53,870 bases of DNA from an archaeon (lineage in GTDB: Archaea > Micrarchaeota > Micrarchaeia > Norongarragalinales > UBA97), in NCBI GenBank assembly GCA_020057405.1, contig JAGVFW010000016.1:1-53870 (forward strand), written 5' to 3'. The notes beneath the pieces were generated by a model, which worked only from the letters and a program-made list of their open reading frames with translations, ran no database searches and was not told the origin of the DNA. A program made the position numbers and the translations under genes. Each line of letters opens with the position of its first letter. Position 1 is the first letter of the stretch. Positions 7,601 to 43,565 of this stretch are shown piece by piece.

Positions 7601-8758
7601 GACGAGGGCGACGAGATAGTCAAGAGCGAGAGCCTGCTTCATGGCTCGGCACGCTACCAGTACAACCCGCTCATGTGGCACTACCGCTCGAAGCACGAGT
7701 CGCTCATCCGCTTCTCAAACGCCGCGTTCTACCACAACCGGCTGCAGACGATGCCGAATTCGCAGAAGGACACTAACGCATTTGAGTGGGTTTCTGTCGC
7801 CGGCACTTGGGAAAAGCGGCGCAACCACGCCGAGGCGGAGAAAGTCGTCGAGCTTGTGACGCAACTGCTTGAAAAGCCGGTCCACCCGTCCATCGGCATC
7901 ATCACGTTTAACTCCGAGCAACGCGACTTAATCCAAAGCAAGCTTGACGCGAAGGCCCGCTATGACTCCGACTTCGCCATCAAGTACGAGCGCGAGAAGG
8001 CCCGCAAGGAAAACGAGGAACTGCTCAACATTTTCGTAAAAAACATCGAGAACGTGCAGGGCGACGAGCGCGATTACATCATCTTCTCAATTGCTTATGC
8101 CCCGGGAGTCGAGGGCGACTTGAGGCACCAGTTCGGCAGTTTAAGCGCCCAGGGCGGGGAGAACCGCCTCAACGTCGCAATCAGCAGGGCGAAGGAAAAA
8201 GTCATCATCGTAGCGTCAATAGAGCCCACGCAGCTCAAAGTCGATGCGGTCGCCAACGATGGGCCCAAGCTTCTCAAGAAATACCTGCAATACGCCAGGG
8301 CGGTTGCCGGCGGCGACAGGCGCAGGGCCGACGAGATAATCGACGCGCTTTCGCCGCGACAGGCGCTCTCCCCGCAGGCAGAGGTGGGAAGTGCATTTGA
8401 GGCAGATGTTGCCCGCGAGCTAGAGAAGCTGGGCTACAAGATTGAGATGCGCGTGGGCGCATCGAAATACGGCGTTGACTTGGCAATCATCGACCCGAAG
8501 AACTCTGGGCGGTACGCCCTCGGCATCGAACTAGACGGCGAGAGCTACTTCGGCGCGCCGAGTGCAAACGAGCGTGACGTCTACCGCCCGCGCTTTCTCA
8601 AGAACCTTGGCTGGAGTATGCACCGCATATCAAGCCGCGACTGGTGGCTTGACAGACAAGGCGTGCTGAAGGAAATCAGGGAAAAAATCAAGGCTGGAAG
8701 CCCGAAGACAGTTGAGAATATTGCGGCTGACCCAGCTGCAAGCTCCATCACACCTTAG
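4658..8758 (+). CDS. DUF4011 + SF1 (Upf1/Dna2-like) helicase + C-terminal Vsr/MTES_1575-like nuclease; Hhe-like defence protein
   Basis: N-terminal KLVNIDKRNTSL and CPLLLIPV (DUF4011-like); GPPGTGKSQ, IFDEASQ, GDDKQLPP, WHYRS, NVQGDERD, RLNVAISRA; C-terminal VDLAI..GIELDG..ERD..R..LGW..RI.S.DWW. Confidence 0.85.
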   Translation: MLLKNRLLDLKNKLVNIDKRNTSLLLRRSFVKTHFDLAKLAVLEKRLPEKVVSSLLQSKGIVPVKSSHRGPQAENLRHLITTLRNESDFIEAENGSYEVCLGWPFVEGTFSNGDYFRCPLLLIPVRLKTDLGRQAIEIEPDEHRAVRLNRTFLLAVQKNDGMKATQEDASELDAVPGLDGLMASSPEHVIKQVLDLYANHKIAFEKGEPTAEVVEMLNAPPSKDPKRRYPFRVLPHAVIGQFSQAATSILADFDELLKEPPSAGKLAELVGGEKPAAKMELQEQELEKDRFYVCETDHSQEKTIEASRSGRDVLIQGPPGTGKSQVIANLVADNLARGKRVLIVCEKRAALDVVYRRLHKAGLSQFLQLVHDPGVDRDAVYDKTRHMLEHYALSKPEQVERELQAASDEITEAAGQLNGYATQLHAKTDCGYSLFELYRLAAANARTQLDLTSIAPTFTGANFSAFKAKAALLLPLEQKYAGPNNPGRHRKLFSKLDKQQVDALIEQSSELIHASDALAQLAKGLGLQPGHKALEALERKHKALSSFKSRGLLGGIMAAISGRDSTLLEIARTHGEDSKETVNELKRLLERGGEHLPQSTLKSARAMHELFLTVEAAATCSAALEKLRKFYDAKLIDGWQAQVRGLALPLADIERLPHKQKSVDEIQALERKLAECSVGERQLLSIALSKMPGAPSDDVVAAIGKSLAQDWIAIAEQKMSAVRELDNKAYLQARRSLASAIERKAKLVPRHIAKEWTERIAEPVLFDWGAASKGDASSLVGWLRERHRGWLEWQRAKANNETLGEITLTDGYHDVTVVSNPVNGGIQLTYSSFVYTPDNSSSHKREYEDFVPCTIAREGDTLIVRAKGPEYSGIVHEVSKKRMRWTLRKFVSEFGSRGLFELFPVWLCSPETVSAILPLKQGFFDCVIFDEASQCPVEKAAPSIHRAKTVVVAGDDKQLPPFDMFRRYYFEEGGDGLEEEYDEGDEIVKSESLLHGSARYQYNPLMWHYRSKHESLIRFSNAAFYHNRLQTMPNSQKDTNAFEWVSVAGTWEKRRNHAEAEKVVELVTQLLEKPVHPSIGIITFNSEQRDLIQSKLDAKARYDSDFAIKYEREKARKENEELLNIFVKNIENVQGDERDYIIFSIAYAPGVEGDLRHQFGSLSAQGGENRLNVAISRAKEKVIIVASIEPTQLKVDAVANDGPKLLKKYLQYARAVAGGDRRRADEIIDALSPRQALSPQAEVGSAFEADVARELEKLGYKIEMRVGASKYGVDLAIIDPKNSGRYALGIELDGESYFGAPSANERDVYRPRFLKNLGWSMHRISSRDWWLDRQGVLKEIREKIKAGSPKTVENIAADPAASSITP

Positions 8759-28712: not shown

Positions 28713-31700
28713 TCATTGGCAGATTATGTCGCCGAGTATCGTCGCCACGGCTCCGTTCGGGCAGTCGGCGGGCTTGGTCTTCGTAGGCGCGCGCGGGTTA
28801 TTCTCGGCGGGGGTGGCCGGGCAAGTGTTTAGCGAGTAGCGTGCGGCGCCCGGGGGCTTTGTGGTTGGGGCCGGGCAGGACCGGTCGGTCAGGATGGTTT
28901 GGATTGCACTAAACCAGCTTACGCCGGTTAGGAACATGCTGCCGTGCATTCCGGAGCCGAACGAGCTTTGCCCGGCAAAACCGGCAAGCTGGCCGTAGAG
29001 CATATTCTGGCCCATGTTGTTGCCAACTGGAATGTGGAAGATGTTGGCAAAGGAGCCAAAGAGCGTCGGCGCAATGGGCGTGCAGTCAGGCGCCAGGCCA
29101 TAGTGGTTGATGATGATGAGCTGGTTCTTGTAAGGAATCATCTGCAAGTACGCTTTTTTGGGCTGGCAGACAGGCGAGCATCCGTCGGAGTAAGCGTAGC
29201 AGGCCGCCCACGCGCTTCTTGAAATCGGGAATGCGAGGGGCAGGTCCTTGAGGTTGCCGGTTGCAAGCTCGCAGGTGTTGCCGGAAGTTATTTCTGCGTT
29301 GGCGGCAGTCTTGCAGGCAGTTACGCCAGTATTAAGCTGCCCTTTTGCCAAGTCGGCAGTCAACCTGCATTTCGCCGCGCAGTCAGCTGGCGCAGTGCAA
29401 AGACTGCATACTGGAGAGCCCGGAAGCTCTCCTGGAGGACATTGGCTTTCACAAAGTCTTTCCGCAGCGTCAATTGAAGTTTCGCCCGAGGTAATCTCGG
29501 ATGCGGCGTCCGCTTCCATCGCTGCCTTGCACTTGAGGATGCCGGTCCCACCTGCGTTTTCGCAAATCCTCAAGCTGTTCACGATTTTCTGCGTGTTCGT
29601 AACGGTATAGGCGTACGTCGCAGTTGCGGAGCAGCTGGTTGGAACCATGCAATAGCAGCCAGCAGCGGAGCATATTTCCGTGCTCTCCACACCAGTGCCA
29701 GTCACGCTTCCAGTAGACTGAACCCAAGTCGGCTTCCTGCAAAGGGAGTCTGTCGTCCCCTGCTTTGCCTTGTAGGCAGCGTTGAGCGGAATCTTGCATT
29801 GCACGGGCTGATAGAAAAGAAGCGGCGTGAGCAGGCCCTCGATTTGCTGGCCCTCGACCGAGTTGCCGAAAATGCCGCCGCCTGTAAACGTGTTGAAGTA
29901 GCTGGCTACCATGCCAATCGGCCCGAGGAACTTGGGCGGCATGCCGATGAATGCAGAATCTATTTGCAGGGGCTTTGAGTGCTCGTCGCTTGCTTGAGTG
30001 TTGGATGCCAGGTTGTTCGTTTCGGTACGCTTGACGCAACTTCCGTCGCCGTATATGAAGTTGCAAAGCGGTTGAGTGCGAACCCCGCCGTCAGCCAGGC
30101 GCGGGTCTGAAATGAATTGGCTCGAGTCGCCGCAAGTGCCGCCAACGTAGTCGTACTCGCGGAGAATGGCGACAGAGCTTTCGGCGCCCCAGTCGCTCCC
30201 GTCGGCGCTGTAGGCCGAGACGGCGTAAATGCGCGGGTTGTCGGCAACACAGTATTCCGCTGCAGGCGTTTGCTTCTCGGGCGCACCGCCTTGGTTTGCA
30301 ATGTGCTTGGCGCCCTCAATCACGCCGGCCGCAGTCCAGAGCTGGAAGTTGCCCGCACCGCCGGTAATTGTCTTAAACGGCTCGCCGTTGCCGCGTCGGA
30401 ATGCAGTCTGGCTCGCAGTCAGGCGCGCAGATTCCTTGAATTGGTTGAGCATCTGGTTGAAAGCGTTTTTGGTGCACCAGCTGCCAGTGCAGCAGTTGGC
30501 GCTCGTGCAGCTGCTCACGCGCTTGCCCATCTCGCTGGTGTGCTCAAAGTATGTCGCAATCTCCTCGTAAGAGAGAGACGCGACTGACGGCACGTTACCG
30601 GGGCCTTCGCGGAACTCTAGTGTGCCGGGTCCGCGCCAGGCGATGACCTCGAGGCCGCTTGATGGAAATTGGATGTCGGTCGAGCCGGGTCGCAACACGC
30701 GCGGGCCAAAGTAGGCCTGGCGGTTGTTGACTGCAAAGACGAGCTGGGGCGTTGCGGGGCCTTCAAGGAAAGTGGGGTTGACTGTGAGGCCGTCGGCGGG
30801 GTTGAACCCGACATTGACGGTAAGCTCAAGGGTCGAAGGCTGGTTGGTGAGGCTGAACTTGAGCTTGGCGCTGTCTATCGTCACGAGCTTTGCCTTGACA
30901 GTGTTGTAGAATGAATTGCCGTACGCCTTGATTGGGCAGGTCGAGTGAGTGATGTCGAAAATGAGTGCGTGCTTTGCCTCGCTATAGTAATAGCATTGGT
31001 CGGTGCCCGAGTCGCTTGAGATTGCCTGCAGCACGATGCGGCCGTTCTGCGGCTGGCTTATTGCAAAGGGCATGGCGTCTGCGGGGAAGATTGGGTCGGC
31101 GTAGAATTGGTAGCTCGTCAGGCCACTGCCAGACTCGAGTGAGCCGGTGACGGGGTTAAAGCGAACTTGGTCTGACGAAGTGCATCCCGGGCAGCTGGCA
31201 TCAGGAGGAAGGTCGGGTGGGGTGATTGGGGCGGGCGCCTGCACGCAGCTAAGGCCATCGGCAGCGCGCTCGTAGCCCTCGCCAACGCAGCCGCATTGGG
31301 GAATGTCGAAGACTATGGTGCCTGCGGGAAGGCAGCGCTTGACTCCATCGCCGGCGTTGCTATAGGAATCAGAAAGGCAACCCTGCGGATGGCCCTTGCC
31401 GTCTTGGGTGGTGCACTTGATGTCAAGCTCGCCCACGCATCCCTCGTTCTGGCACGCCACGCAGGCCTTGCCGTCTGAGGCGGGCTTCTTGCCGTCGGGA
31501 CATCCGCACTGGACCGCGTTGCTTGCAACAACCGCGTTGTTCTCGGAGTTTAGTTGGCAGCGAAGCGGCGAGCGGTCGGAGAGGCACGAGTTGACTTCAA
31601 AAGAATTGCCTTGCGGGTCAACGCACTTCTTGTCAGAACAGAATCCCGTCGAGCGGCTGCAAGCTTTGGTGGTGCTGCCACCGCAAGTGGAGTCGCACGA

Positions 31701-34700
31701 ACTGCAGAGAGGCGTTTGCTGGAGTTGAGCAGTGCAGAAGAACGGCTTGTTGGCGGGCAGGCACTTGTTTGGAGTGCTGCACTCGCCGTAATTGGGAGGC
31801 GGAGTGGGTGACGGTACTGGGATGCAGCTGAGCCCGTCTTTGGAAAGTACTTTGCCCTGCGGGCAGGCGCATGCCGGCGGGTTTGGCGAAATCGTGCCGC
31901 TTGCGCCGTCGCAGTAGAGCGGGGCTTTGCCGGTAATGCAGCCGGACAGGTATTGCGCCTGGGTCTGCGGATCAGTGCAGGTGCCGCCACCGCCGTTGCC
32001 ACCGCCTTGGGTGACGCAGGAATTGCCTTGCGCAACTAAGTTGGCAGGGCACCCGCAGTCGCCAGCGCGGGGCTGGAGCCTTGGGCCGACAGTTGTTTGC
32101 ACGCACGCGTTTGGCTTTGATGCGTCGCACTGGCCTATTGACAGGCGCGCCCCACCCGTGCCGACGCATTCAGTTTGCAACCTTGGAGCGCAAGTCAAGC
32201 CATCGGCGGATGGCTCAAGGCCCGGCGGGCAACCGCACTTGGTTGCGTCCGGTGAAAGCGCGCCGGCGGATGAACAGAAGAGAGGCTGGATTGAAGCGCA
32301 GCGGTTCGGTTCGCCAAGCATCCGGCCGTTTGAATCGCGGCAGGCGCCGCCGACTTCACTGCAGTCTTGGGTGGTGCAGCGGGCGCAAGCGCCGTTTAGC
32401 ACGCGGTAGCCTGTCGGGCAGCCGCATTGAGTGCTGGATTGGAGTGTTGGAACGCTGGCGGACAAGAGGCAAGCCTTGGGGGGCGTGACTTGCGAGCAGG
32501 CGCCTAGAAGCGTGCCGTCGGGGCACTCTACTGCAGTGCACGAGTTGCCGCTTTGCGTCTTGCCTGCGGGGCATCCGCAATCGCCTGCGGCTTCGCTCGT
32601 CGTCCCGTCAGTGCACTTGAATGGTTTTTGCGGAGTGCAAGTGCCGCTTGCAACTCGCTGTCGCCCGATGATGCATTCACGTCCTGCATCGGCGGGCTTG
32701 AGGTCTAGGTCGAGCTTTTGCGAGTCGGCATAGCATCCTGCTTTTTGTGAAGACGAGCCGGCGCTGCCGAGGATGGCATCGGCGGGCCGATGCGCGTAGT
32801 TGGCGTCTTTTCTTGCAAAGGCGTTGTAGTAAAGCGAGAGCTTTCCCCGGCTTGCGGTTGGCTTGACGAAAACTTGGAAGACTACCACTTGCGAGACTGA
32901 ACCGCTTGAGTCGGCAGACACTGTCGCGGACACCCACTTGAAGAGGCCGTCGACGGGCGCGTTGTTGTTCGCGTCAACGCACGTACTTGACGGGTTGAAT
33001 GTCGTTGACTTGATTATTAGGGCGTCGCCTGCGTCAAAGTCCTTGATGCCGGCAGTGTCGGTTGAAACGCTTTGGCCATCGCCCACGCGGAGCGTCATGC
33101 CCGCTTCAGAAGCGTCCTGCGCCGCGAGGGAAAACCAAATGGAGTACTCGCGGTCGGGTGAGAGGAATTTTGCCGAGTTCCCGAATTCGTCAAACGCGCC
33201 GTTGTAGTAGGCGGCGGCGTCAAGGCCGGTTGAGGAAAATCCGGGGACCAAGAAAATTTGGAGGCTCTTGGTTTCCCCAACTGCGAAAGTGGTGTGGTCG
33301 GTCGAATCCATGTAACCGCCGGCGGTTGTGGTGAATGTCACGTCGCTGGGCTTGACGCGGAGAGTGCAGGGGGCAGAACACTCGTCGGCAAACCCGTTTC
33401 CTTCGGCCTTCACGTGCGCACCGGTTAGGGGTTGCTGCGAGCCGGCATCGATTGCCTCTACCACGGCGTTGGCGTAGTTCGAGTCGACGGTGAGGTCAAG
33501 TGAAGTTGATGGCGGCGTTGAGGTGAATTGTTTTGTGGATTTAAAAGCGCCGAAGACCGCGGTTGCAGCAAGATTGCCGGCCGGCACTGCGGTGAATGAA
33601 GCGCCGCCGTTTGCGCCCGTGAGTGCAGGCGGAACGGTAAATGAGCCGTCGGTTCGCCGAATTGAGACGAGGGCGTTGGCAAGGGGGGCGCCGTCTCCGT
33701 CCTTGACTGAAACCGAGAGAGAAGAGTAATCTGAGGGCGATGCGGTTAAGTCGGTGCATCCTCGTTCGCCGTTGTGCTCAACGCAAGTCTGGTACTTGAC
33801 TGTCCCGGTTAGCGGAGCGGTTGGGAGGGTGGCGAAGACCGAGTCGCCGGCGGCAAACGGGCCGGCGCGCACGGTTAGAGTCGAGCTTTTGTAGGCGTAG
33901 GCGACGAAATTTCCGCTTGAAGGCAGTGCCACTTGGGCGCCTTGCGCGTCGGAAGTGAATTGCTCAAACGGGATTGTCTCGTCGCCTTGGGTGAAGACCA
34001 GCCAGCTTGCCTGCGTTGGCGCCCCGTCGTTTCCGTAGGCTTGGAAAGTTGTTGGAGTTGAATCTGCTGTGTCTAGAACCACTTTCACTGAGGGGGAGGA
34101 GCCGAATACGGTGAGTACTGGCTGGCGCTGCACGAAGCCCGGGGCGCGTGCGGTGATGCCGATGTTCGCACCGATTGGCAGGCCGCTGAGAATTGCCATG
34201 CCGGCGGTTGTTTTGACTTGTGCGATGAGCTTGCCCGAATCGGCTTCGTAGGCTGAGACTAGCGCTTCGGCGGAGGCGCCTGTTGCGTCAACGACGATGA
34301 CTTGAAGGGAATCGGCGGACTGCGTTGTTGCGTGCGCAACGCCGTCTGTAATCACGAACTGGAAGAGGAGCGCACCCGACGCTGAGTGGACTTCGATTAC
34401 TCCCTGCGAGATAACGCCGCCGGTTGCGTCTTCGGCGATTAATAGAGTGCCGTCGTCAAGCCTGTCGAGCTTGGCGCTGCCCGCGGTTAGCGTCGCGGGA
34501 TTAAGCTCGCTGCCGGTTGAGTCGAAAACGCGGATGCGACCCGACTGCAAAAACTGGCCCGACGAATCGCGGACTTTTAGGATTGAGTTAAACGCCAGGG
34601 CAGTGCCGGTTCTTGAGGTAAAAGAGAGCGTGCCTTTCTTGGCTCCCGGCGTGAGTGACTCGAGTGAAACTGATTGGCCGGCGGTGACTGCCGATATTGA

Positions 34701-35381
34701 GAGGGAATTGGCGCGGTAGCCTTCCTTGCTAAGACGCAGCTTGACGAGGGCGCCGTAAGGCGCCGGGATTACGGCCCTGCCTGAAGCGTCGGTAGTCAAG
34801 CGCAGCGCGTTAGTGCCGACGACCGCCAGGACTGCCGCCTGCGAAAGGGACTCGCCGGTTATCGAATCGACTATTGAAAGAGTGAGCGTACCCTTGTAGC
34901 TTCCGGGGCTGCCGGGTGCGGTGCCGGGGGTGAAGAGCTTGACTTCAGCAGTTCGGATTGTCGAGAGGTCGATGTGCACGAGGTATTCCTGCGAGTCGCT
35001 TGTCGCTACCCTGCCTTCGGCGCTTGCGCGAAGCACCACGCGTTGGGGCAGGTTCTTGAATGACACCATGCCGTTTTTCGTCGTGCCGACTGCGAGTTGG
35101 TTGTTTGACTCGTCATAGACGCGTACTGTCGCCCCGTCGAGTTTTTGGCCGCCTGCGTAGACGGCAACGGTCAGGTCATGAGTTGTCGCTGAGGGGGAGA
35201 AGAAAGTGTAGTAAGCTGCGAGGAGGGCAAGGAGGGCGATGAACGCGAGGACTTGCAGGCCAGAGATGCCCTGCTTTTCTAGGGGGTTGTGGAACCACTT
35301 GCCTGCGGGCACGCCGTGGCCGTCAAGCCAGCTGATTACGGCGTGGTAGGCGCTTTCAATCCGGTCAAAGAGCGAGGGTAT
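28713..35381 (-). CDS. Giant Cys-rich surface protein (2199 aa from GTG35312; probably 2222 aa from ATA35381): N-terminal TM, Ig/Cna-B-like stalk, 8 EGF-like repeats, Cys-rich tip
   Basis: Uninterrupted ORF; TM LQVLAFIALLALLAAYY; V.D..G..L..A.V repeats; CGCP repeats; motifs shared with the upstream paralog. Confidence 0.85.
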   Translation of the reverse strand: MPSLFDRIESAYHAVISWLDGHGVPAGKWFHNPLEKQGISGLQVLAFIALLALLAAYYTFFSPSATTHDLTVAVYAGGQKLDGATVRVYDESNNQLAVGTTKNGMVSFKNLPQRVVLRASAEGRVATSDSQEYLVHIDLSTIRTAEVKLFTPGTAPGSPGSYKGTLTLSIVDSITGESLSQAAVLAVVGTNALRLTTDASGRAVIPAPYGALVKLRLSKEGYRANSLSISAVTAGQSVSLESLTPGAKKGTLSFTSRTGTALAFNSILKVRDSSGQFLQSGRIRVFDSTGSELNPATLTAGSAKLDRLDDGTLLIAEDATGGVISQGVIEVHSASGALLFQFVITDGVAHATTQSADSLQVIVVDATGASAEALVSAYEADSGKLIAQVKTTAGMAILSGLPIGANIGITARAPGFVQRQPVLTVFGSSPSVKVVLDTADSTPTTFQAYGNDGAPTQASWLVFTQGDETIPFEQFTSDAQGAQVALPSSGNFVAYAYKSSTLTVRAGPFAAGDSVFATLPTAPLTGTVKYQTCVEHNGERGCTDLTASPSDYSSLSVSVKDGDGAPLANALVSIRRTDGSFTVPPALTGANGGASFTAVPAGNLAATAVFGAFKSTKQFTSTPPSTSLDLTVDSNYANAVVEAIDAGSQQPLTGAHVKAEGNGFADECSAPCTLRVKPSDVTFTTTAGGYMDSTDHTTFAVGETKSLQIFLVPGFSSTGLDAAAYYNGAFDEFGNSAKFLSPDREYSIWFSLAAQDASEAGMTLRVGDGQSVSTDTAGIKDFDAGDALIIKSTTFNPSSTCVDANNNAPVDGLFKWVSATVSADSSGSVSQVVVFQVFVKPTASRGKLSLYYNAFARKDANYAHRPADAILGSAGSSSQKAGCYADSQKLDLDLKPADAGRECIIGRQRVASGTCTPQKPFKCTDGTTSEAAGDCGCPAGKTQSGNSCTAVECPDGTLLGACSQVTPPKACLLSASVPTLQSSTQCGCPTGYRVLNGACARCTTQDCSEVGGACRDSNGRMLGEPNRCASIQPLFCSSAGALSPDATKCGCPPGLEPSADGLTCAPRLQTECVGTGGARLSIGQCDASKPNACVQTTVGPRLQPRAGDCGCPANLVAQGNSCVTQGGGNGGGGTCTDPQTQAQYLSGCITGKAPLYCDGASGTISPNPPACACPQGKVLSKDGLSCIPVPSPTPPPNYGECSTPNKCLPANKPFFCTAQLQQTPLCSSCDSTCGGSTTKACSRSTGFCSDKKCVDPQGNSFEVNSCLSDRSPLRCQLNSENNAVVASNAVQCGCPDGKKPASDGKACVACQNEGCVGELDIKCTTQDGKGHPQGCLSDSYSNAGDGVKRCLPAGTIVFDIPQCGCVGEGYERAADGLSCVQAPAPITPPDLPPDASCPGCTSSDQVRFNPVTGSLESGSGLTSYQFYADPIFPADAMPFAISQPQNGRIVLQAISSDSGTDQCYYYSEAKHALIFDITHSTCPIKAYGNSFYNTVKAKLVTIDSAKLKFSLTNQPSTLELTVNVGFNPADGLTVNPTFLEGPATPQLVFAVNNRQAYFGPRVLRPGSTDIQFPSSGLEVIAWRGPGTLEFREGPGNVPSVASLSYEEIATYFEHTSEMGKRVSSCTSANCCTGSWCTKNAFNQMLNQFKESARLTASQTAFRRGNGEPFKTITGGAGNFQLWTAAGVIEGAKHIANQGGAPEKQTPAAEYCVADNPRIYAVSAYSADGSDWGAESSVAILREYDYVGGTCGDSSQFISDPRLADGGVRTQPLCNFIYGDGSCVKRTETNNLASNTQASDEHSKPLQIDSAFIGMPPKFLGPIGMVASYFNTFTGGGIFGNSVEGQQIEGLLTPLLFYQPVQCKIPLNAAYKAKQGTTDSLCRKPTWVQSTGSVTGTGVESTEICSAAGCYCMVPTSCSATATYAYTVTNTQKIVNSLRICENAGGTGILKCKAAMEADAASEITSGETSIDAAERLCESQCPPGELPGSPVCSLCTAPADCAAKCRLTADLAKGQLNTGVTACKTAANAEITSGNTCELATGNLKDLPLAFPISRSAWAACYAYSDGCSPVCQPKKAYLQMIPYKNQLIIINHYGLAPDCTPIAPTLFGSFANIFHIPVGNNMGQNMLYGQLAGFAGQSSFGSGMHGSMFLTGVSWFSAIQTILTDRSCPAPTTKPPGAARYSLNTCPATPAENNPRAPTKTKPADCPNGAVATILGDIICQ
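31245..32678 (-). repeat. About 8 tandem Cys-rich protein repeats (C..C...P..C...CxCPxG...(D)GxsC), EGF-like
   Basis: CGCPAG, CGCPTG, CGCPPG, CGCPAN, CACPQG, one degenerate unit, CGCPDG and CGCVGEGY. Confidence 0.8.
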
Positions 35382-35396
35382 TGCAGCCTACCCCCC

Positions 35397-38300
35397 TTAG
35401 TTGTTAACGCGGATGGACTCATCCATCGGCGCCTCGCAATAGTCGCCGTATACGCTGTTGGAAGCTTGGCCAAAGCAATAGCCGCTGTAGCCCTGGGGCG
35501 GGGTGGTTGGAATCGGGCACTCGATGACGTCGTTGGCGGCGGTGTTGTCGTCAATGTATTGCGGGGCGATGGGGCAGAAGATGAGGCTGTCGCCGCTGCC
35601 TCCGCAGTTTCCGCAGTAGGCGGTAGCGCAGTACTGCACGCAATCGCATACGCCGGGGTGACCGTCCTCGCCGCAGCTGTGGCTGTGCTCCTCTACGCTC
35701 ACCTGCTTGATGTTGCAAAGCCACTTGTTGTTTTCAACGATTCTTGAACCAACGGTTTGTCCGGCTGCGTTTTTAACATTGATGCTGCCGCCGCCGTACT
35801 CGGTCTTTATCGAGCAGCCGACTTGCTTGACGCTGAGGGTGCCTGAGCTTGTGGCGGTGTCTGACGGCTCGTTGCCAAGCAAGTACTGGGACGTGGGCAG
35901 TTGCTTTAGTGCCACGGAATAGCTGAAGCTCTTGCCGTCCGCACTCGACGCCTTAAGCTCGTAGAGGCCGATGCCGACTCCGCACATCTCGGAAGTCTCA
36001 GGCGTAAAGCCCAGGCCGTCGGGCGGGAGCGCAGTCAGTTGGTCAATGTTCCAGCCCCAAGTGGAGATGGGCAGGGACATTGAGAAGTCGCGCGGGCCGT
36101 TGAAGTAAGTGTTGACTAGGTACTTGTACGGCGCGCCCCAGTAGTTTTCGATGTTGTGCACGTTTTGCAGCGAGTACTGCTCTAGAGGCGTGATGTTGAG
36201 CCAGTAGTTCGGGTCGCTTGGGTCTAGTGGGCCGGCTTGAGTGACCACGCGCTTGAAGCCGGCGTTGCAGTCGGGATCGCAGCGCGGCAGTCCGCAGGTG
36301 CTGCCTTGGGCGTCCTGCGGGTGGCAAGACAACGACTTTCGCGTGATGGTTATCTTGAGGGGCACCGAATACGCGTCTCCGCCGGCCTTGGTTGACTTGA
36401 GGCGCACGGCCCAAACGCCGTCGGTAGTGCCGCTGGGGTCAACATTGAATTGCTTGGACCAGGTCCAGGTTGCGTTGTTGAATGAAAGTTGGTTTGCGTC
36501 GTATGTGCCTAGGAACTTGTCGCCGCTGCCGTCGCACCACTGGCTGTTGCCCGTGGCGATTGGACACGAGGTGCTGCCGCGCTTCTTGAACTCGAGCTTC
36601 ATTGAGCTGACGCCTTCGCTGTAGTTCGACAGGGTAAACGAATTCTCCTCGTGGATGTCGTAGAACTGCACGCTCGCCAGCGTCTTCTGGTTTTCGGGAG
36701 TTATTGAAATGCCGAAGTTCGAGTCTGGGTTGTAGGAAACGTCGACGCCTCCGGAAACGTCGGCGCACGAGCGGCAGGACACGTTAGCGAACTGCTGGAC
36801 GATGGTTGTATTAATCCAGAGGACCATGCTCGGGTAACACGAGATTTCGTTAGTGTCGCGCCTGGTGCCGCAAAGCCAGTTGCTCATTGCAAGGGGCGAG
36901 CGTCGGAATACCGACATTGCCGCCACGTCCTTGACGCTCGACTTGAACATCGCGGGTACCTTCGACATGACGTCGCTCACGTACGCCGTTGCCTCGCAAG
37001 TGTAGCGCGCAATGTTTTCGGGATCGCCGTTGGCGTGGTTGGTGAACTGCTGGTAGAGGTGGTTGGTAGACTCGGCAGCGTGCACCCGGCCGACTAGGAT
37101 GCTAAGCCAGCTGCCAGGGCGGTAAGCGTTTAGCTCGTCTGGAATAGTAACCGTGACGCCATCTGTTTGGGAACCGCCGCCGGGATAGAACTTGAGTGGG
37201 TAGGTATTTTGAGAGTCGGTCCCGGGACCGCCAGTGCCTGCCGACATCAGCCAATAGTTGAGCCTGGCGTTTGGAGCGTCAGGATCCTCGTCATTCCAGT
37301 CAAGGTCTGGGGCGTAGGTGATTGACTTGCGCACGTCGCTCGGCTGGTTACCAGCGGCCTTAACCGCGAGGTCGGGAGCGTTGGCAGGATATTGGCCGTT
37401 ATACAGCGTGTACGCGGCCTGGTGTGACTGGCCCTTGCCGAAAATGTAGCTGGCGTCAAGGGCATTTACGCCCTGGAGGTCCTGCTTCTTGATGATGAGC
37501 ACTACTGACGCCTTCTTTCCGGTGCCGCCGCACGCCACAGTCATGTTGACGCGACCCAGTTCAACGTAGCCTGAGGCGGCCTTGCGCTGGAGGTCGTCGG
37601 GCAGGTAGAAGTTGTTGCCTTTAAGGAGCGAAGGCGTCTTTAGCGCGTTGACGATGACTACGGGAGTGCCGCCAATGTTGCGGTAGTAAAGGTAATCGCC
37701 GACAAACGGGTGGCCTGCAACGGGCGAGAACTGCACTAGCTCCTGCGCCAGTACGTCGCCGCAAATGCTCTTGAATGAAGTGTCAAGCTCCATCGGCACC
37801 GCGTCTGCGGGGAAGATGTTGTCAACGACCATAGTCATGTTGTTGCAGCCGGAAACGGGTTGGGGCTGGCCCCGGCCGTCCTGCTCGATGCGGAATACCA
37901 ACGCCGCGTTGCCGCCGCAGAAAAGCGAGTTGGGGCCAATGTCGGGCGGCAAGTCTGGCACCGACCGGTTCTCAACGTAAGGCAGGACCGTGGAGTGGGA
38001 TAGCCTGCCGCCGTTGTAGATTGTGACGTTGCCGGTTATCTTGCCAGTCGCCATCGGTGCGACGAGCACGGTGAGAGCCATTTGCTCGCCGCTTTGCACG
38101 TTACCGAGGTCGATGGCGATGTCGCGCTTGTGCTGGCTAGCGTCGTACGGGTATGTAGTGCGGCCGGCCCTATCGACATAAGCGCGCATGATGAAGTCGG
38201 CGGACGGGCCCGTGAGGTTAAACGTGAGGGTCGCTCCCGAGGCGGCCACGCGCGAGGTAATCACGTGCTTGAGCTCGACGTAGGAATCGGGGCAAGTAAG

Positions 38301-41300
38301 TTCGGGCAGGCCCCAGCTTTGCTTGCGGTAAGTGTTCTCGACGTTAGTAAAGTCACCGCCTGCTACGCAGGAGTTGACAGTGAAGAACAGGTTGTCGATG
38401 CCGCAGGTGTATGAGTGGTCGTCACCGCACGGCTGGTTCTCGTTTGGGTGGCGCTGGCGGGCGTCTGCGGGCGTTTGGATTATTGCAGTGTCTGAAGCTG
38501 TGACTGGGGAGATGACGTCAACCGAGGAGCCGGTGACGAGAACGGAAGTTGAGCCCGAGTCAACGCCCATTGAAATCTCTGCAACGTCCTGCGTGGTCGT
38601 GAGTGCGGTTGGCCACAATTCGAGCTCGCCGACAAAGTCGCGTGGGGCGGCGAAGTCAGGGCAGTCGCTGACGTCAATCGTCATCTTCGTGCCGCTGCCG
38701 GTTATTGGGTGGTTGACTTTCGCGTTGTTGCTGCTTCCGCAGTAGACGCTGAAAGTCGCGGACTTGAACTCAAGGTGTGCAGGGTCAATAGTGAAAGTGA
38801 TCTTGCCGTCAGGCAGGGGCTCAAGCAAGTCAATTGCGAAGCTCACGTTAAGCGGCCTTGGCGTACGGAACTCTGGCGGGAACTCGCCGGCCCACCTAAT
38901 CCACTCGGGCTTCGAAATTGCGTCAAAGCCGGCCTGGCCGTCGTTCTCTGACACGCTGCCTTGTGGCGTGAACTGTGAGAAGTGCTCGAACTTGGCGCAC
39001 GCCTGCGTGGTGCACGAGGCGCCCTCGTTCTTGAGCTTGAAAGAGTATGCGGCCTGCTCGGCTTGGCAGTAGTCGCGGTTGGAGTTGCTGCGTTCGGTGC
39101 CTAAGACGGCATCGTGGGGGTAGCGCAGGTAGCGCTCGGACCCGTCCCTGTAGCTTGCTGCAAACGCGCGGTAGCCTAGCGTGATGTTGGCAGCGTCAGT
39201 CCCTGAGGGAACGAAGAAGTAAACGTCAGACGAGAATGCCTTGCCCGAGGTGTTGGCACCGTTAGTCACGGCGTACGCGTCCATCCAATTAAAGCCGTTT
39301 TCGGGTTTGCCCTGCGAGTCGAAGTGGACGTTGGCGAAGAAGTTGGCCGGAGTGTAGTACTGCTCGGCGCACGAGTCAAGATTGTCTCCGCCAGTAATGT
39401 TGCCGATGGTTAAGGACAGGTCCATTGACGCCATCTTGCGCGAAGCGTTGTAAAAGTACGCAGTGCCGTCAAACGGCGCTAGTGTTGCGGCAAAGCCAAC
39501 TTTTTCGGCGTTTCTAAATGCCGAGTGGAGAGTCGCCTTGTAGGTGTGGTTCTTGTCAAGGAAGATGCTAGTGTCGTTGCAGAACGGCGAGCCGCTCGCC
39601 GAGCACACGACGCGGGCGTCAGTCAGGTCAGTCAGGCGGTAAACCAGCGTGACAACAGTTGAGTTAGGGTTGGAGGTGGATGACGGGATGAGCGGCACTG
39701 CCGCGATGGTTCGCGTTGCAAGCGTCGTGCCCTTCACTACAATGTTTGAGGAGAATGGAAGTGCGGGCGAGTCAAAGTAGCCTGAGGCAGTTGCGGTGGC
39801 GTTAAAGGCGTCAGGAAGGTCGCCCTCGAAATACCTCATGCGGAAAGTGCATGCGCGCGGGTCGCCGTCTAGGCGGCAGCCGTAGCTGACGGCGTCAAGG
39901 TAAGTGAGGTTGACTAAAGCCCCGCCAATTGGCGCGTCGGTGAAAGCGTCGCGCGGCTCGAACTTCACTACCCCGTATGCGGGGGCCACGCGGATGAATG
40001 ACGAGACTGCAAGCGCACCACCCTCGTTTGCCGGGCCGTTTACAAAAGACGCGTTGAATCCCGCCTTCTCGTTGGTGGTAGTGGCGTTCCTGGGTGAAAG
40101 GAAGGCGGTTGCAATCACATGGTCGCCAACTGCGGTCGCGTCAAGCGACGCGACTGCCGAGAGACCGTTGGACGACACTTGGCCAAAGCCTGAAGCCTTT
40201 AGCGCGCCCTGGGCGTCAAGCACGAGATAAGAGAGGCTGAGGACCGGAATCTTGGAAGACGAGTTGAAGACCACCATGGGCGCGGCGTAGGGCTGGAATG
40301 CTTCGAACGAGAAGTTGATTGAAGAGGCAGTGCAATTCCACGAGCTAATGTCAGCTGGGAAGTTGGCGCTGCAGTCGTCAAGAGCGGCGATTGGCCCGCC
40401 TTCAATCCCGTCGTCGAGAGCCGGCAGGACTTCATGGCGGTCAAACGGCGCGCGGACAACGTAGCTGCCGTTCCCTAGGCGCTCAAAACCAACCTGCTCG
40501 GTTTGGGTGAAACCCGGAAGCTCCCACTGCAGCAGGCCGAACTGGTCGATGGCGCGCTCGTTGTAGGCGACTACCACCCAACTGTTGCGCAATCCGTGCT
40601 GCGAGGCGGCGGAGTAACCAATCGAGACAGGGGCTTCTGGCGAAAGTTCCCATGGCTGTGCGATGACGTAGCCCTGCACTATTGCCGCGGGCGGCTTGTT
40701 GCGGCCGGCGAAAAGCAGTGCGTCCGCGTCGATGGTGAAGTTTACAAAGCCGTATTGGTCCACGATAAACTGTGGCGTTACTTCGATGTGCACATTGTCG
40801 GCACCGACTTTGGTGAACACCACTTTTTCGGGCCGCACGCTAGAGTAGTTGCTCTTGAATGAGAAAGCGTAGGGCCGGCGGACTTGGTTGCTGCGCGAGT
40901 CCTCGATGGTGAACACGACCTGGAGCGGAGTGCACGCATCTTGGTTCGTGCCGTTGCCCTCAAAGCAGCGTTTTGTCGAGAAGGCCGTGAAGCCATCGCC
41001 GCGGCCGTTGTCGGGGTTGGTGTCCTGTGCGAATGTCGTTGTCACGCAAACGCTGTTGTCGGGGCTGCAGCTCTTTTGCGACGAGGCGAGAGTGAATGAC
41101 TCGGAGTAGTTGTTGGCGTGGCAGTCGAGCTTGCCGTTAAAGAGCACGTCGGAATCGTACGGGTCGTAGGCAGTCTTGTTGGCGCTCTGCACGTAACTGC
41201 GCCAGTGCATTGAGAAGCCATTGCTGGCGGCATCCTCGTTGGTGCGGAAGGAAGTGAAGAACTGGCCGGCGTAGGGCTGGCCGTTGATGTTGTTGATTGA

Positions 41301-43457
41301 TACCAGGTCGAGCGCGCGGTAGGCGTTGCCGATGCCATAGTCAAGCGAGTTGTAGGCGGTGCAGCTGTCCTCAATCGAGGTGTAGCCGAAAGACTGCAGC
41401 TGGAGGTTGGGGAATGCCGAGTGGTTAAAGAAACAGGCGCCTGCGGTCGAGCAGTCGCCGTCGGTCGCGCCGGCCTGCATGAACGCGCCGGCGCCTTCGT
41501 CGGTTGCGTTAAACGAGCGGAGCGTAAACTTGGCGTTGTAGTCAAACGACTTTACAAGCTCGCCGCCCTGGGCGACAGGCCTGCCCTGCCAGTCGAAGAC
41601 GCCGTCTAGAGTCATTATGGAGGAGCCGTTGAAGCTTGTCGGAATCATTGCCGTTGAAACGCTGACGACCTGGCCGGGCTGCTCAATCCATGGCACGACG
41701 ATGTCGCTTGAGTTGAAGTAGTTTGGCGCGGTTGCAAAGAGCCGGCAGTCGACAATCCATGGCGCGGGAAGCATGCAGTGCGAGCCAGTGCAGCTGCTGG
41801 CGGCAAAGTAATCAAAGCGGCCTTCAGCAAAGTAAAGCGGCTCCTGGCACACCAAGCGCAGCCGCCCGCGGTCAAGGTCGGGAGTGACGCCAAGCGTGAT
41901 TGCGTCGTAGACACTCGCGTTCACCGTGCCGCTCTCGGGAACGACGGGCAAGTTAAGCGAAAAGTCGGTGTTGTTCTGCCCTGCAGTGAGCTCAAAAACA
42001 ACTGGCCCGCCGTGAAGCAAGGGCGTCTGGTCGCCCAGGTAATAGTTGGCGGTGATGTTGAGCACGTCGCCGGTAAGCAAATCGAAGAGCGGCTCGCCAA
42101 GGAGAGTGGTGCAGGAGGAGAATTCCACGACTCCGTCAGTGCCGGTATCGTCGCTTGCACATAAGGCGGATAAATTGTCCTGCTTTAGTCGGATGGTGAC
42201 TGCAGCGCCGGACACGGCGCGCACGCCGGTCGGGGTAGCGCGGGTGACGTTAATTGAAATCGTGGCCGGTACGACGGAATTGTTGCTGCCTGTTGCGTCA
42301 AGCTCGATGGTTATGGTCCCGGTCTGGGCCGTGAACGCTTGCGTCCCGCGGTTGTAGCCGTCCTTTGACGCCACAGCTCGATAGCTGTCGCCCAAGCGCA
42401 GGACGTAAGTGCGGCTGCCGTTAATCACTTCCTCTGAAAGAGGAAGCTGCGCGTCGCCGCGGTAGAGCTGGAGGCGCACTCCCGAAAGAGGACCTCCGCC
42501 GCGCTGCTTTACAACTATAGTAACGTTAGCGCTGGCATTGGCGGTAGCTGGGTCAAGAAGAAGCGTTATCGTGCGCGAGGGGGACATTATCTGGTAAGTG
42601 AGCCCAAGGCCATAGCCGTCGTATTCAAAGTATCCTGTCGCATTTGCCTTCGCGAAGAACCGAGTGCCGTAAGCAATTCCTGCAAAGACTGACGTGCCGT
42701 TAACCGCAACCGATGAAGCCAACTGGCGAAGCGATGAGGCGTCGATGAGCTGGGCGGATGCACGTGAGGCGATTACCGTGCCAGTCTTTGAGTCGCGCAA
42801 TACTGCGATGACCGCTCCCTTCTGGCCAGAGTGGTTGCCGCCGGGAACGATGATTTGGTGGTCGCAAGTGCCGTCATCGTCGCAGAAAGTGACGTTGGTG
42901 AAGCCGCCGCCGGGCGGGGGCGATACGGTGTTCGGAGTTCCGCCAGCCGAGGGCGGCCTGCCGGTTGTCAAGGTGACTAGGTCGATGCGCCCGCGCCGTC
43001 GTGCAGTGTCGAAAAACGCGTTTCCCTTCAGGTCGTCCTTATGCGCGCGGAATTCAAGCTGCTTTAGCGGCATTCCGACAAACACGGCGCTGCCATCGAC
43101 GGTGTTAGCTGTTGCGAGCATGACGTCGCCATCGTAGACTTCGACAACAGCGTCGGAGACGCGCGCGCCGTCTTTGAAGACCGCCACTTCAAAGTCGGCA
43201 GTCTGGCCAAAGCCGCCGAAGGTAAAGAGCAGCAGGGCCAGGATTGCGAGTAGAACTAAAACCGTAACTGGGAAACTGGGGACGCCGCGGGATTCTATTG
43301 GGTCAACCCAGTACTTGTAGACTGGCACGCCCGCCCCGTCAAGGGCATCCATAACCGCGTAGTAGCCGTCTTCGAGCTTGAGATAAATGCCCAGCAGGAA
43401 TTTTTTCAGGCGGTCGACCACAGACCCGCCGGTGCCTTCTGCTGCCCCTTCCGCCAT
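35397..43457 (-). CDS. Giant surface protein (~2686 aa): N-terminal TM, Ig/carboxypeptidase-regulatory-like stalk, duplicated ~300-aa module, Cys-rich C-terminus
   Basis: Uninterrupted ORF; ATG43457 lies 24 nt from the TTTTTAA TATA box; TM VTVLVLLAILALLLF; abundant NxS/T sequons. Confidence 0.88.
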   Translation of the reverse strand: MAEGAAEGTGGSVVDRLKKFLLGIYLKLEDGYYAVMDALDGAGVPVYKYWVDPIESRGVPSFPVTVLVLLAILALLLFTFGGFGQTADFEVAVFKDGARVSDAVVEVYDGDVMLATANTVDGSAVFVGMPLKQLEFRAHKDDLKGNAFFDTARRRGRIDLVTLTTGRPPSAGGTPNTVSPPPGGGFTNVTFCDDDGTCDHQIIVPGGNHSGQKGAVIAVLRDSKTGTVIASRASAQLIDASSLRQLASSVAVNGTSVFAGIAYGTRFFAKANATGYFEYDGYGLGLTYQIMSPSRTITLLLDPATANASANVTIVVKQRGGGPLSGVRLQLYRGDAQLPLSEEVINGSRTYVLRLGDSYRAVASKDGYNRGTQAFTAQTGTITIELDATGSNNSVVPATISINVTRATPTGVRAVSGAAVTIRLKQDNLSALCASDDTGTDGVVEFSSCTTLLGEPLFDLLTGDVLNITANYYLGDQTPLLHGGPVVFELTAGQNNTDFSLNLPVVPESGTVNASVYDAITLGVTPDLDRGRLRLVCQEPLYFAEGRFDYFAASSCTGSHCMLPAPWIVDCRLFATAPNYFNSSDIVVPWIEQPGQVVSVSTAMIPTSFNGSSIMTLDGVFDWQGRPVAQGGELVKSFDYNAKFTLRSFNATDEGAGAFMQAGATDGDCSTAGACFFNHSAFPNLQLQSFGYTSIEDSCTAYNSLDYGIGNAYRALDLVSINNINGQPYAGQFFTSFRTNEDAASNGFSMHWRSYVQSANKTAYDPYDSDVLFNGKLDCHANNYSESFTLASSQKSCSPDNSVCVTTTFAQDTNPDNGRGDGFTAFSTKRCFEGNGTNQDACTPLQVVFTIEDSRSNQVRRPYAFSFKSNYSSVRPEKVVFTKVGADNVHIEVTPQFIVDQYGFVNFTIDADALLFAGRNKPPAAIVQGYVIAQPWELSPEAPVSIGYSAASQHGLRNSWVVVAYNERAIDQFGLLQWELPGFTQTEQVGFERLGNGSYVVRAPFDRHEVLPALDDGIEGGPIAALDDCSANFPADISSWNCTASSINFSFEAFQPYAAPMVVFNSSSKIPVLSLSYLVLDAQGALKASGFGQVSSNGLSAVASLDATAVGDHVIATAFLSPRNATTTNEKAGFNASFVNGPANEGGALAVSSFIRVAPAYGVVKFEPRDAFTDAPIGGALVNLTYLDAVSYGCRLDGDPRACTFRMRYFEGDLPDAFNATATASGYFDSPALPFSSNIVVKGTTLATRTIAAVPLIPSSTSNPNSTVVTLVYRLTDLTDARVVCSASGSPFCNDTSIFLDKNHTYKATLHSAFRNAEKVGFAATLAPFDGTAYFYNASRKMASMDLSLTIGNITGGDNLDSCAEQYYTPANFFANVHFDSQGKPENGFNWMDAYAVTNGANTSGKAFSSDVYFFVPSGTDAANITLGYRAFAASYRDGSERYLRYPHDAVLGTERSNSNRDYCQAEQAAYSFKLKNEGASCTTQACAKFEHFSQFTPQGSVSENDGQAGFDAISKPEWIRWAGEFPPEFRTPRPLNVSFAIDLLEPLPDGKITFTIDPAHLEFKSATFSVYCGSSNNAKVNHPITGSGTKMTIDVSDCPDFAAPRDFVGELELWPTALTTTQDVAEISMGVDSGSTSVLVTGSSVDVISPVTASDTAIIQTPADARQRHPNENQPCGDDHSYTCGIDNLFFTVNSCVAGGDFTNVENTYRKQSWGLPELTCPDSYVELKHVITSRVAASGATLTFNLTGPSADFIMRAYVDRAGRTTYPYDASQHKRDIAIDLGNVQSGEQMALTVLVAPMATGKITGNVTIYNGGRLSHSTVLPYVENRSVPDLPPDIGPNSLFCGGNAALVFRIEQDGRGQPQPVSGCNNMTMVVDNIFPADAVPMELDTSFKSICGDVLAQELVQFSPVAGHPFVGDYLYYRNIGGTPVVIVNALKTPSLLKGNNFYLPDDLQRKAASGYVELGRVNMTVACGGTGKKASVVLIIKKQDLQGVNALDASYIFGKGQSHQAAYTLYNGQYPANAPDLAVKAAGNQPSDVRKSITYAPDLDWNDEDPDAPNARLNYWLMSAGTGGPGTDSQNTYPLKFYPGGGSQTDGVTVTIPDELNAYRPGSWLSILVGRVHAAESTNHLYQQFTNHANGDPENIARYTCEATAYVSDVMSKVPAMFKSSVKDVAAMSVFRRSPLAMSNWLCGTRRDTNEISCYPSMVLWINTTIVQQFANVSCRSCADVSGGVDVSYNPDSNFGISITPENQKTLASVQFYDIHEENSFTLSNYSEGVSSMKLEFKKRGSTSCPIATGNSQWCDGSGDKFLGTYDANQLSFNNATWTWSKQFNVDPSGTTDGVWAVRLKSTKAGGDAYSVPLKITITRKSLSCHPQDAQGSTCGLPRCDPDCNAGFKRVVTQAGPLDPSDPNYWLNITPLEQYSLQNVHNIENYWGAPYKYLVNTYFNGPRDFSMSLPISTWGWNIDQLTALPPDGLGFTPETSEMCGVGIGLYELKASSADGKSFSYSVALKQLPTSQYLLGNEPSDTATSSGTLSVKQVGCSIKTEYGGGSINVKNAAGQTVGSRIVENNKWLCNIKQVSVEEHSHSCGEDGHPGVCDCVQYCATAYCGNCGGSGDSLIFCPIAPQYIDDNTAANDVIECPIPTTPPQGYSGYCFGQASNSVYGDYCEAPMDESIRVNN

Positions 43458-43555: not shown

Positions 43556-43556
43556 G

Positions 43557-43565
43557 ATATAAATA
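43557..43565 (+). promoter_or_regulatory. TATA box (ATATAAATA) of argS
   Basis: Ends 27 nt before ATG43592. Confidence 0.6.

Follow-up and report, generated by a model that had tools for sequence, protein, structure and literature searches.

Two tandem paralogous giant proteins of a Micrarchaeota genome as candidate stalk-and-head surface fibrils

What do two giant genes, lying one behind the other in the genome of an archaeon of the order Norongarragalinales (Micrarchaeota), encode, and do their products act together? The genes, referred to here as gene 1 and gene 2, are found in contig JAGVFW010000016.1 of assembly GCA_020057405.1; the whole stretch of DNA that was analysed, positions 1 to 53,870 of this contig (53,870 nucleotides, nt), is called the window. 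Both are in-frame and co-oriented on the minus strand, in tandem, and together they take up 14.7 kb (window 28713..43457). A sequence-only reading had described them as paralogous giant surface proteins built of the same unnamed modules in the same order, and as a candidate heteromeric or alternative structure for attachment to a host. The tandem layout was borne out, with all quoted strings found in their places, as was the origin from the DPANN archaea, since the record titles of relatives name Micrarchaeota, a DPANN group. We consider it somewhat better than an even bet (a probability of about 0.55) that the two genes encode paralogous giant single-pass surface proteins which act as separate stalk-and-head contact or adhesion fibrils, and not as an obligate heteromer.

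The paralogy was confirmed by alignment. The N-terminal regions of the two proteins align over 161 residues with 30% identity (BLASTP, E 6e-13), and three further weak matches are collinear (E 0.009, 0.045 and 4.2). A profile of the gene 2 distal module, made from 22 sequences, matched gene 1 in three collinear pieces, with a full E of 6.4e-10 (47-sequence set); the same three places, marked by the motifs IFPADA, FRR and SADG, were matched in P0006, a relative 55% identical to gene 1, and two of the three in two more gene-1-type proteins. In the shuffle control gene 1 scored 29.7 bits, as compared to a best score of 4.5 bits in 1000 block-shuffled copies, so that the shared motifs of the distal module are clearly beyond chance. 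As indicated by hhalign, residues 1862-2186 of gene 1 correspond to residues 1412-1663 of gene 2 (97.2% probability, E 4.5e-11) and residues 2441-2526 to residues 1666-1746 (88%, E 3.1e-6); since these are two separate collinear segments, gene 1 carries an insertion of ~255 residues directly after FRR. IFPADA, FRR and SADG are parts of one module of 420 amino acids (aa). Gene 2 matches a 432-position profile of it over the full length (E 5e-144), including the columns D..D, C, Q, R, P, A and L that do not vary, and gene 1 holds a diverged and interrupted version (29.7 bits); a whole-genome search with the profile of the head, the last domain of this module, also gave an independent match in gene 1, at 35847-35969 (E 3.7e-4).

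These comparisons altered the proposed layout in some details. The module of ~250-300 aa said to be shared by both proteins, here called module 4, is indeed shared (E 1.1e-13 in gene 1), though not as a single copy: its profile, made from 24 relatives, was found once in gene 2 (residues 561-900) and twice in gene 1, where an additional copy lies at residues 553-797. The distal motifs follow each other in the same order in both proteins, as claimed, with the ~255-aa insertion after FRR in the gene 1 version. For WLCN and PLCN, which had been listed as a further shared element, significance was not shown, as no alignment extends to them. The tips beyond them are unrelated, in agreement with the earlier description; BLASTP found no relation between the C-terminal ends. 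The parts of the two proteins, in the order of translation and in window coordinates, are the following.

35397..43457, minus strand: gene 1, 2,686 aa, start ATG at 43457, stop TAA at 35397-35399
43269..43457, minus strand: N-terminal tail and conserved pre-membrane motif (GIYLKLEDGYY...PIESRGVPSFP), gene 1 residues 1-63, from alignments
43200..43268, minus strand: single membrane helix, about residues 64-86 of gene 1, the sole segment over threshold in a hydropathy scan
41808..43190, minus strand: beta-sandwich stalk, about residues 90-550 of gene 1, by homology to the CarboxypepD_reg-type stalk of gene 2
41067..41801, minus strand: module 4 copy 1, gene 1 residues 553-797, profile domain E 2.8e-16, at the canonical position of the family
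39015..39983, minus strand: module 4 copy 2, gene 1 residues 1159-1481 (GYRAFA..RYPHDAVLG..YCQA), profile pieces E 3.4e-4 and 1.1e-13
36900..37874, minus strand: distal module part one, gene 1 residues 1862-2186, two immunoglobulin (Ig)-like domains with the IFPADA motif and the start of an alpha/beta head up to FRR, from hhalign
36138..36899, minus strand: insertion of ~255 aa in the head, gene 1 residues 2187-2440, the gap between the two hhalign segments, without a gene 2 counterpart
35880..36137, minus strand: distal module part two, gene 1 residues 2441-2526 (LYELKASSADG), from hhalign
35400..35879, minus strand: cysteine-rich C-terminal tip of gene 1, including WLCN, unrelated to the gene 2 tip by BLASTP
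35382..35396, minus strand: intergenic spacer of 15 nt from the gene 1 stop to ATA, with a G6 run, an in-frame TAG (35388-35390) and GCTGCA
28713..35381, minus strand: gene 2, ~2,222 aa when counted from ATA 35381, stop codon at 28713-28715
35271..35381, minus strand: pre-membrane motif, gene 2 residues 1-37 (LFDRIESAYHAVISWLDGHGVP..NPLEKQG), from BLASTP and the anchor profile
35202..35270, minus strand: single membrane helix, about residues 38-60 of gene 2, from the hydropathy scan
33702..35201, minus strand: beta-sandwich stalk, gene 2 residues 61-560, with Pfam CarboxypepD_reg and weak SpaA, bMG3 and Big_1 matches
32682..33701, minus strand: module 4, gene 2 residues 561-900 (YYNAFA..HRPADAILG..GCYA), from the module 4 profile
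31227..32669, minus strand: cysteine-rich repeat insert, gene 2 residues 905-1385, six units of ~50-120 aa ending in C[GA]CP.G
29877..31226, minus strand: distal module, gene 2 residues 1386-1835, Ig-like, Ig-like and alpha/beta head, from alignment and model
29943..30527, minus strand: alpha/beta head, gene 2 residues 1619-1813 (CC..WC, FK..FRRG, SADG, PLCN), from alignment and model
28716..29876, minus strand: cysteine-rich tip, gene 2 residues 1836-2222, partly conserved in relatives (positions 525-812 of the 823-residue C-terminal query)

The gene 1 entry in the automatic list of open reading frames (ORFs) begins at TTG 43469; ATG 43457 is the likely start, and the protein database copy (P0005) is 2,686 aa long. 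In the stalk of gene 2, CarboxypepD_reg (PF13620) reached 59.9 bits in two stretches, over a gathering cut-off of 32.3; Pfam matched no part of gene 2 outside the stalk. The cysteine-rich repeat insert (~490 aa) is kept by gene 2 and its closest orthologues and is missing from most members of the subfamily. Similar C[GA]CP repeats were seen in a 1,113-aa anchor-family protein on contig C6 of the same genome and in a 3,691-aa gene 1 orthologue of another genus; as they occur in different proteins of the family, the repeat block appears to move between its members.

How would such proteins be held at the cell surface? The family motif ..Y..[LIV]E[DE].[YW]Y...P[IL]E..G[IV]PS[FL]P lies directly before the helix. 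Gene 1 has all of its invariant positions, and E29, Y33, P53, E55, G58, S61 and P63 of gene 1 are invariant across 30 sequences; in the anchor alignment all 16 sequences agree in Y, E, YY, P, E, G and PSFP. The motif of gene 2 has diverged (it scores 48.3 bits with the motif profile), and GISGLQ replaces GIPSFP. With a mean column identity of 58%, as compared to 28-40% in the modules, the motif is the best conserved part of these proteins. A hydropathy scan showed the N-terminal helix to be the sole hydrophobic segment of each protein, and the two chains contain 60 and 96 cysteines, many of them in invariant columns. The expectation of a conserved motif followed by a single membrane helix was therefore upheld for both proteins, with the reservation that the gene 2 motif sits upstream of the only canonical start (see below). 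From these features we infer a single-pass topology, N-terminus in and C-terminus out, with the motif in the cytoplasm. An archaeosortase (PGF-CTERM) anchor was looked for, and neither a C-terminal hydrophobic segment nor an NCBIfam match was found in either protein; a C-terminal anchor was dropped as a candidate because the hydrophobic end is absent from both. Complex prediction for the two N-termini (170 and 150 aa, supplied with alignments) stayed under the mark in both runs, with no control folds, and is evidence neither way.

A different explanation for the motif is that it is a long class III (prepilin-type) leader that is cut off to leave a pilin-like N-terminus, so that the giants ride on, or tip, fibres resembling type IV pili. 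The invariant glycine in ..E-x-[RKN]-G-[IV]-P-S-F-P, with the hydrophobic stretch behind it, is reminiscent of a class III cleavage site of archaea; glycine and PSFP abut the hydrophobic helix and are invariant in all 16 sequences, and the genome encodes a homologue of prepilin peptidase (Peptidase_A24, PF01478; contig C3:12434-12745, minus strand; 46.5 bits, over the Pfam cut-off). The class III signals known so far have short leaders, however, while a leader of 37-63 aa would be needed here. The residue ahead of the glycine varies (R, K, N, H, T, G, A, S), the proline at +2 is unusual, and a discarded leader would hardly be expected to surpass the rest of the protein in conservation (58% as against 28-40%). 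We regard this explanation as quite improbable.

A parallel to the motif may be seen in the extended signal peptide region (ESPR) of very large proteobacterial autotransporters and two-partner-secretion proteins. Like the motif described here, it is a conserved N-terminal extension ahead of a hydrophobic export segment, specific to very large exported proteins; unlike it, the ESPR is bacterial and lies within a cleaved Sec signal peptide, whereas in the present proteins the helix is the only possible membrane anchor. A sequence relation was not detected, the N-termini of both proteins being without any Pfam match at E <= 0.01.

The proposed arrangement is then as follows. Each protein would be fixed to the cytoplasmic membrane by the pre-membrane motif of ~40 residues and the sole membrane helix. 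Its stalk of beta-sandwich domains, which varies little in length, would carry module 4 and, beyond it, a distal unit in which two Ig-like domains precede an alpha/beta head rich in disulfides, followed by a cysteine-rich tip specific to each protein. The distance from the helix to the start of module 4 had a median of 474 aa in 29 ORFs, with values of 474 aa for gene 1 and 595 aa for gene 2. The two proteins would show different distal surfaces, that of gene 1 probably glycan-coated and that of gene 2 strictly free of N-glycan sites.

The latter contrast was observed in the distribution of sequons (N-x-S/T, N being asparagine), for which the expectation was taken from 5000 shuffles per protein; no shuffle reached any of the observed values. 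Gene 1 has 48 sequons where 24.1 are expected and its relative P0006 has 43 (expected 20.1). In gene 2 none was found among 90 asparagines (expected 15.5), and the same holds for its orthologues in G225, a genome of another genus of the same family (expected 16.0), and in a genome of the same genus (expected 12.9); gene 2 and these orthologues contain 90, 93 and 65 asparagines with no sequon at all. Other members of the subfamily have 0 to 21. As both the enrichment and the depletion go beyond chance, the long part of these proteins would meet the N-glycosylation machinery, i.e., lie outside the cell; the cysteine content and the single N-terminal helix fit with such a location.

Do the two products join into one structure? 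The profile searches for the anchor, module 4 and the head covered 301 genomes of the phylum, 35 of them in the same order and 266 outside it; genomes of a single order do not count as independent observations. The anchor profile (first 150 residues) was found in 35 of the 35 genomes of the order, with a best E of 3e-22 or lower and between 4 and at least 12 matches per genome, nearly all of which head ORFs of 1,000-5,000 aa, often in tandem. Weak matches only (E 8e-7 to 8.5e-4), which we attribute to the beta-sandwich part, came from 43 of the 266 genomes outside the order. Module 4 was found in every one of the 35 genomes inside the order and in one of the 266 others (E 5e-4), and the head in 29 and none, respectively. 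The distal module matched 97 of 1.84 billion cluster representatives at E <= 1e-3, 52 of them at <= 1e-30. A pattern scan for the anchor motif over 185,579 species genomes, based on a 5-sequence alignment, confirmed 35 loci, whose titles name Micrarchaeota (24), Micrarchaeia (3), Norongarragalinales (2), Iainarchaeum (4) or an uncultured archaeon (2). In the genomes searched, the family does not extend beyond a single order of Micrarchaeota. In the genome studied here (1.22 Mb, 17 contigs) this N-terminus recurs in four or more additional ORFs (1,113, 2,670, 3,389 and 5,182 aa), the longest of which, on contig C2, has both the anchor and module 4. No paper describing the anchor-motif family, or the motif, was found in the literature collection searched.

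The two types within the family differ greatly in frequency. Of 61 genomes of the order, 42 encode relatives of the C-terminal 823 residues of gene 2, mostly in ORFs of 1,400-1,900 aa, and in most gene-2-type proteins the distal module comes directly after module 4. The C-terminal 791 residues of gene 1 have near-full-length relatives in two other genomes only, G225 (E 2e-142) and G056 (E 1e-74); one further match is a fragment at a contig end, and a database of 5.8 billion proteins holds a single gene 1 relative of similar length. With so few relatives, gene 1 is best seen as a rare, expanded offshoot of the common type. G225 encodes a 3,691-aa gene 1 orthologue (39% identity over 2,405 aa) and, ~180 nt after it, a 2,316-aa gene 2 orthologue (39% over 1,919 aa); judged by this shared arrangement, the tandem pair is older than the split between the two genera. 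In G056 an adjacent pair of 1,848 and 1,892 aa was found, the second member being of gene 1's type.

These data can be set against the heteromeric apparatus of the sequence-only reading, in which both products would come together as a single contact structure, held by the anchors, stalks or distal modules that they have in common. Such a structure would agree with genes that are adjacent, co-oriented, in frame and 15 nt apart, with an identical order of modules in both proteins and with the recurrence of the pair, in the same order, in G225; in about a dozen genomes, moreover, a gene-2-type ORF adjoins another anchor-family ORF. That neighbour differs from genome to genome, however, and therefore arrays are the rule and a fixed partnership of gene 1 and gene 2 is not. 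Since the gene 2 type is widespread and the gene 1 type rare, most gene-2-type proteins would work without a gene-1-type partner, and the stalks of the present pair are of unequal length up to module 4 (474 and 595 aa). The heteromer was for these reasons not sustained and is judged unlikely.

The distal module is the part that separate fibrils would present, and its predicted structure was compared with known folds. The model of the gene 2 distal module (450 residues, 21 sequences; predicted local distance difference test score, pLDDT, 88.6; predicted template modelling score, pTM, 0.85) shows two beta-sandwiches (residues 19-108 and 117-232 of the model) and an alpha+beta domain (240-420). 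The head modelled alone (195 residues) reached a pLDDT of 85.7 and a pTM of 0.82, with a long helix bearing FK..FRRG packed on a sheet. For the whole distal module only generic Ig-like sandwiches were retrieved, with a Foldseek template modelling (TM) score of 0.25 or less and a best VIA Z of 7.9 over 75 residues. For the head, Foldseek against the PDB found no structural neighbour (best E 1.0), VIA against 48,161 chains gave a best Z of 3.2 (root-mean-square deviation 4.3, 96 aligned) and nothing at Z >= 5, the best E in BFVD was 0.26, and the ESM Atlas held no usable match. According to the guidance of the fold-search tool, models without a clear match usually still reach a Z of 7-8, and with its best Z of 3.2 the head is therefore unusually isolated. 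Its modelled fold appears unlike that of any solved protein, although a missing match is no proof of a new fold.

Sequence searches were equally poor in relatives. Pfam gave scattered hits only (E >= 0.003, in one or two members) on 21 distal-module members and on the members of module 4, NCBIfam had no match to the modules, and the distal-module, module 4 and anchor profiles found nothing in PDB sequences below E 0.15. The surface-layer (S-layer) proteins EA1 and Sap appeared in the Foldseek list at a generic Ig level only (TM-score 0.15 or less), and SbsB was among tied Ig-like VIA matches (Z 6.7). None of the modules was placed in a described S-layer family by these searches, in agreement with their earlier description as unnamed; the Pfam, NCBIfam and PDB sequence searches found nothing for them, and the folds of the distal module were generic Ig-like or, for the head, without a match.

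An additional scenario is that the family serves the envelope itself, as a spacer or scaffold between the membrane and a surface layer or as part of the wall, with no recognition of other cells. The roughly fixed stalk length would suit this role, as would the presence of the family in 35 of 35 genomes of the order, with several copies in each. Some members of the lineage may also be free-living (PMC12892359). The distal parts, however, differ strongly between the paralogues and their tips are swapped, which is unusual for a lattice or scaffold, and the likeness to S-layer proteins stays at the generic Ig level. The same genome also encodes four giant ORFs without the anchor motif, of 5,606, 3,430, 2,198 and 2,045 aa (C16:899-17716, minus strand; C17:141421-151710, minus; C6:158647-165240, plus; C17:121516-127650, minus), which have 356, 188, 133 and 124 sequons, two to four times the expectation; the anchor-family members of this genome are mostly sequon-poor. 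There seem to be two classes of giant surface proteins in the genome, of which the anchor-less, sequon-rich one looks like the better source of wall or S-layer candidates. We accordingly see little probability in a purely structural role for the anchor family.

Separate contact or adhesion fibrils remain the preferred reading, and several observations weigh against it. Contact with cells or surfaces is what we infer from the architecture, host attachment being no more than a candidate role, and the support consists of sequence and models. No domain has a fold or family that would indicate binding, gene 1 has no Pfam match at E <= 0.01, its stalk included, and the invariant D, R and Q residues of the head could be catalytic. 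That each genome of the order has several copies of the family would also suit a structural part in the envelope. The G225 orthologue of gene 1 is poor in sequons (5, as against 26.9 expected), so that a glycan coat is not conserved in the gene 1 lineage, and the N-terminus of gene 2 is uncertain in that no canonical start precedes its motif. Norongarragalinales, the order named in 2 of the 35 record titles with the anchor motif, may depend little on hosts according to PMC12892359, whose passages on the matter do not mention surface proteins; a low dependence would weaken the case for contact with a host.

A more far-reaching version may be entertained as a speculation with a low chance of being right in full. 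In it the head would be a new fold and the contact module of an order-specific surface system; the bare surface of gene 2 would be the working interface (or its chain would pass through a narrow conduit), and gene 1 would be the glycan-shielded counterpart. The pair would then be two-faced, and the shared motif would dock all members of the family to one cytoplasmic or membrane machine.

The uncertainty about the N-terminus of gene 2 raises the question of whether this gene is intact. No ATG, GTG or TTG was found between TAG 35388-35390 and GTG 35312, the first canonical start, which lies 84 nt after the gene 1 stop and cuts the pre-membrane motif; the public gene call (P0020, 2,199 aa) runs from this GTG. 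Gene 2 might accordingly be decaying, its start lost and its protein either unmade or made only from GTG without the first half of the motif. This would be in poor agreement with a frame that is open for 2,224 codons and has kept all invariant residues of three modules. After the TAG there are 25 stop-free codons up to GTG, which encode the counterpart of the first half of gene 1's N-terminal motif; the residues encoded ahead of GTG (IPSLFDRIESAYH) still spell the motif, as the 23 codons in question raise the motif-profile score from 26.6 to 48.3 bits (+21.7), a value reached by none of 1000 shuffles (maximum 37.7). A G6 run lies 9 nt ahead of ATA (35379-35381), in a G-rich, Shine-Dalgarno-like stretch, and a start at GTG would still leave a functional signal anchor. 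Decay of gene 2 is therefore considered very improbable. ATA is an allowed though rare start codon in table 11, and the orthologue in G225 starts with ATG; initiation or re-initiation at ATA, a very recent loss of the start or a base error would be the three remaining explanations. Read-through from gene 1 into gene 2 was dropped as a candidate in view of two in-frame stops within three codons. The gene 2 orthologue of the same genus (L064, G306:C4:1-9500) begins at a contig end inside the anchor motif, and repeated motif-coding sequence may possibly break assemblies at this point.

The arrangement of a stalk and a head has precedents elsewhere. In bacterial fibrillar adhesins (PMC9210967) a repeated Ig-like stalk projects a distal non-repeat domain, and the proteins evolve fast and are often very large; the present pair shares the Ig-like stalk and the distal head. 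The pair is archaeal, however, and anchored by an N-terminal helix and not by a sortase, outer-membrane or C-terminal anchor, and neither module 4 nor the head matched the listed adhesive domain families in Pfam. Consecutive genes for extracellular proteins of thousands of residues are also known from the small genome of Apilactobacillus kunkeei (Giant1-5; PMC12863079). These are bacterial and unrelated in sequence, and the analogy is one of layout only.

Among DPANN archaea, the SPEARE proteins reportedly combine protease, adhesion and endonuclease parts. They are giant surface proteins of Nanohaloarchaeota, proposed for host contact (PMC6642349); they belong to another phylum, have other recognisable domains, and no similarity to gene 1 or gene 2 was found. 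Mia14, a cultured relative from the Micrarchaeota, has four large genes for secreted surface proteins, ~2.5% of its genome, which were proposed to serve cell-cell interaction (PMC5498576). As in the present case, a cell of the Micrarchaeota type spends a sizeable share of a small genome on large surface proteins, but those of Mia14 are described as having PKD, beta-propeller, CARDB and LamG domains, none of which was found in gene 1 or gene 2 with Pfam.

Little is known of how DPANN archaea, which are very small, build their outer surface and make contact with their neighbours, and most of their largest genes lack annotation. The pair offers a testable list of parts, namely an anchor motif and two further modules, all restricted to a single order in the genomes searched. 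The 195-residue head, with a confident model and no neighbours, is small enough to be expressed, solved and used as bait, and the contrast in glycosylation sites between two paralogues of one probable operon is a natural experiment on the role of N-glycans in archaeal surface proteins. If the lineage is truly only weakly dependent on hosts, the family may report attachment to surfaces or the building of the envelope, which would change how "giant adhesin" genes of DPANN archaea are read.

With a gap of 15 nt, gene 1 and gene 2 are probably one transcription unit. Upstream of the pair lies a divergently oriented gene for arginyl-tRNA synthetase and downstream of it a gene for a P-type ATPase, and hence the pair lacks a specialised operon context. 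In the 122-nt spacer between gene 1 and the arginyl-tRNA synthetase gene no promoter of gene 1 was identified; a TTTATATA / TATATAAA box lies there at window 43556-43563, ~29 nt ahead of the ATG of the synthetase gene (43592), whose transcript may be leaderless. In the tip of gene 2, residues 2100-2165 (window 28887-29084) form a stretch of 66 aa that lacks D, E, K and R, abounds in G, F, M, S and Q and is too low in hydrophobicity for a membrane helix; the G225 orthologue has no charge-free stretch of at least 40 residues at the matching place. Elsewhere in the window, one long gene with helicase domains and four genes for likely surface proteins were noted.

4658..8758, plus strand: protein of 1,366 aa, superfamily-1 helicase domains (AAA_11, AAA_12), with an MTES_1575 restriction-endonuclease-like domain at the C-terminus
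1761..4433, minus strand: likely surface protein, NosD/beta-helix, 890 aa
21289..23415, plus strand: likely surface protein, multi-Ig-like, 708 aa
48686..49954, plus strand: likely surface protein with a PKD domain, 422 aa
50088..51224, plus strand: likely surface protein, LamG-like, 378 aa

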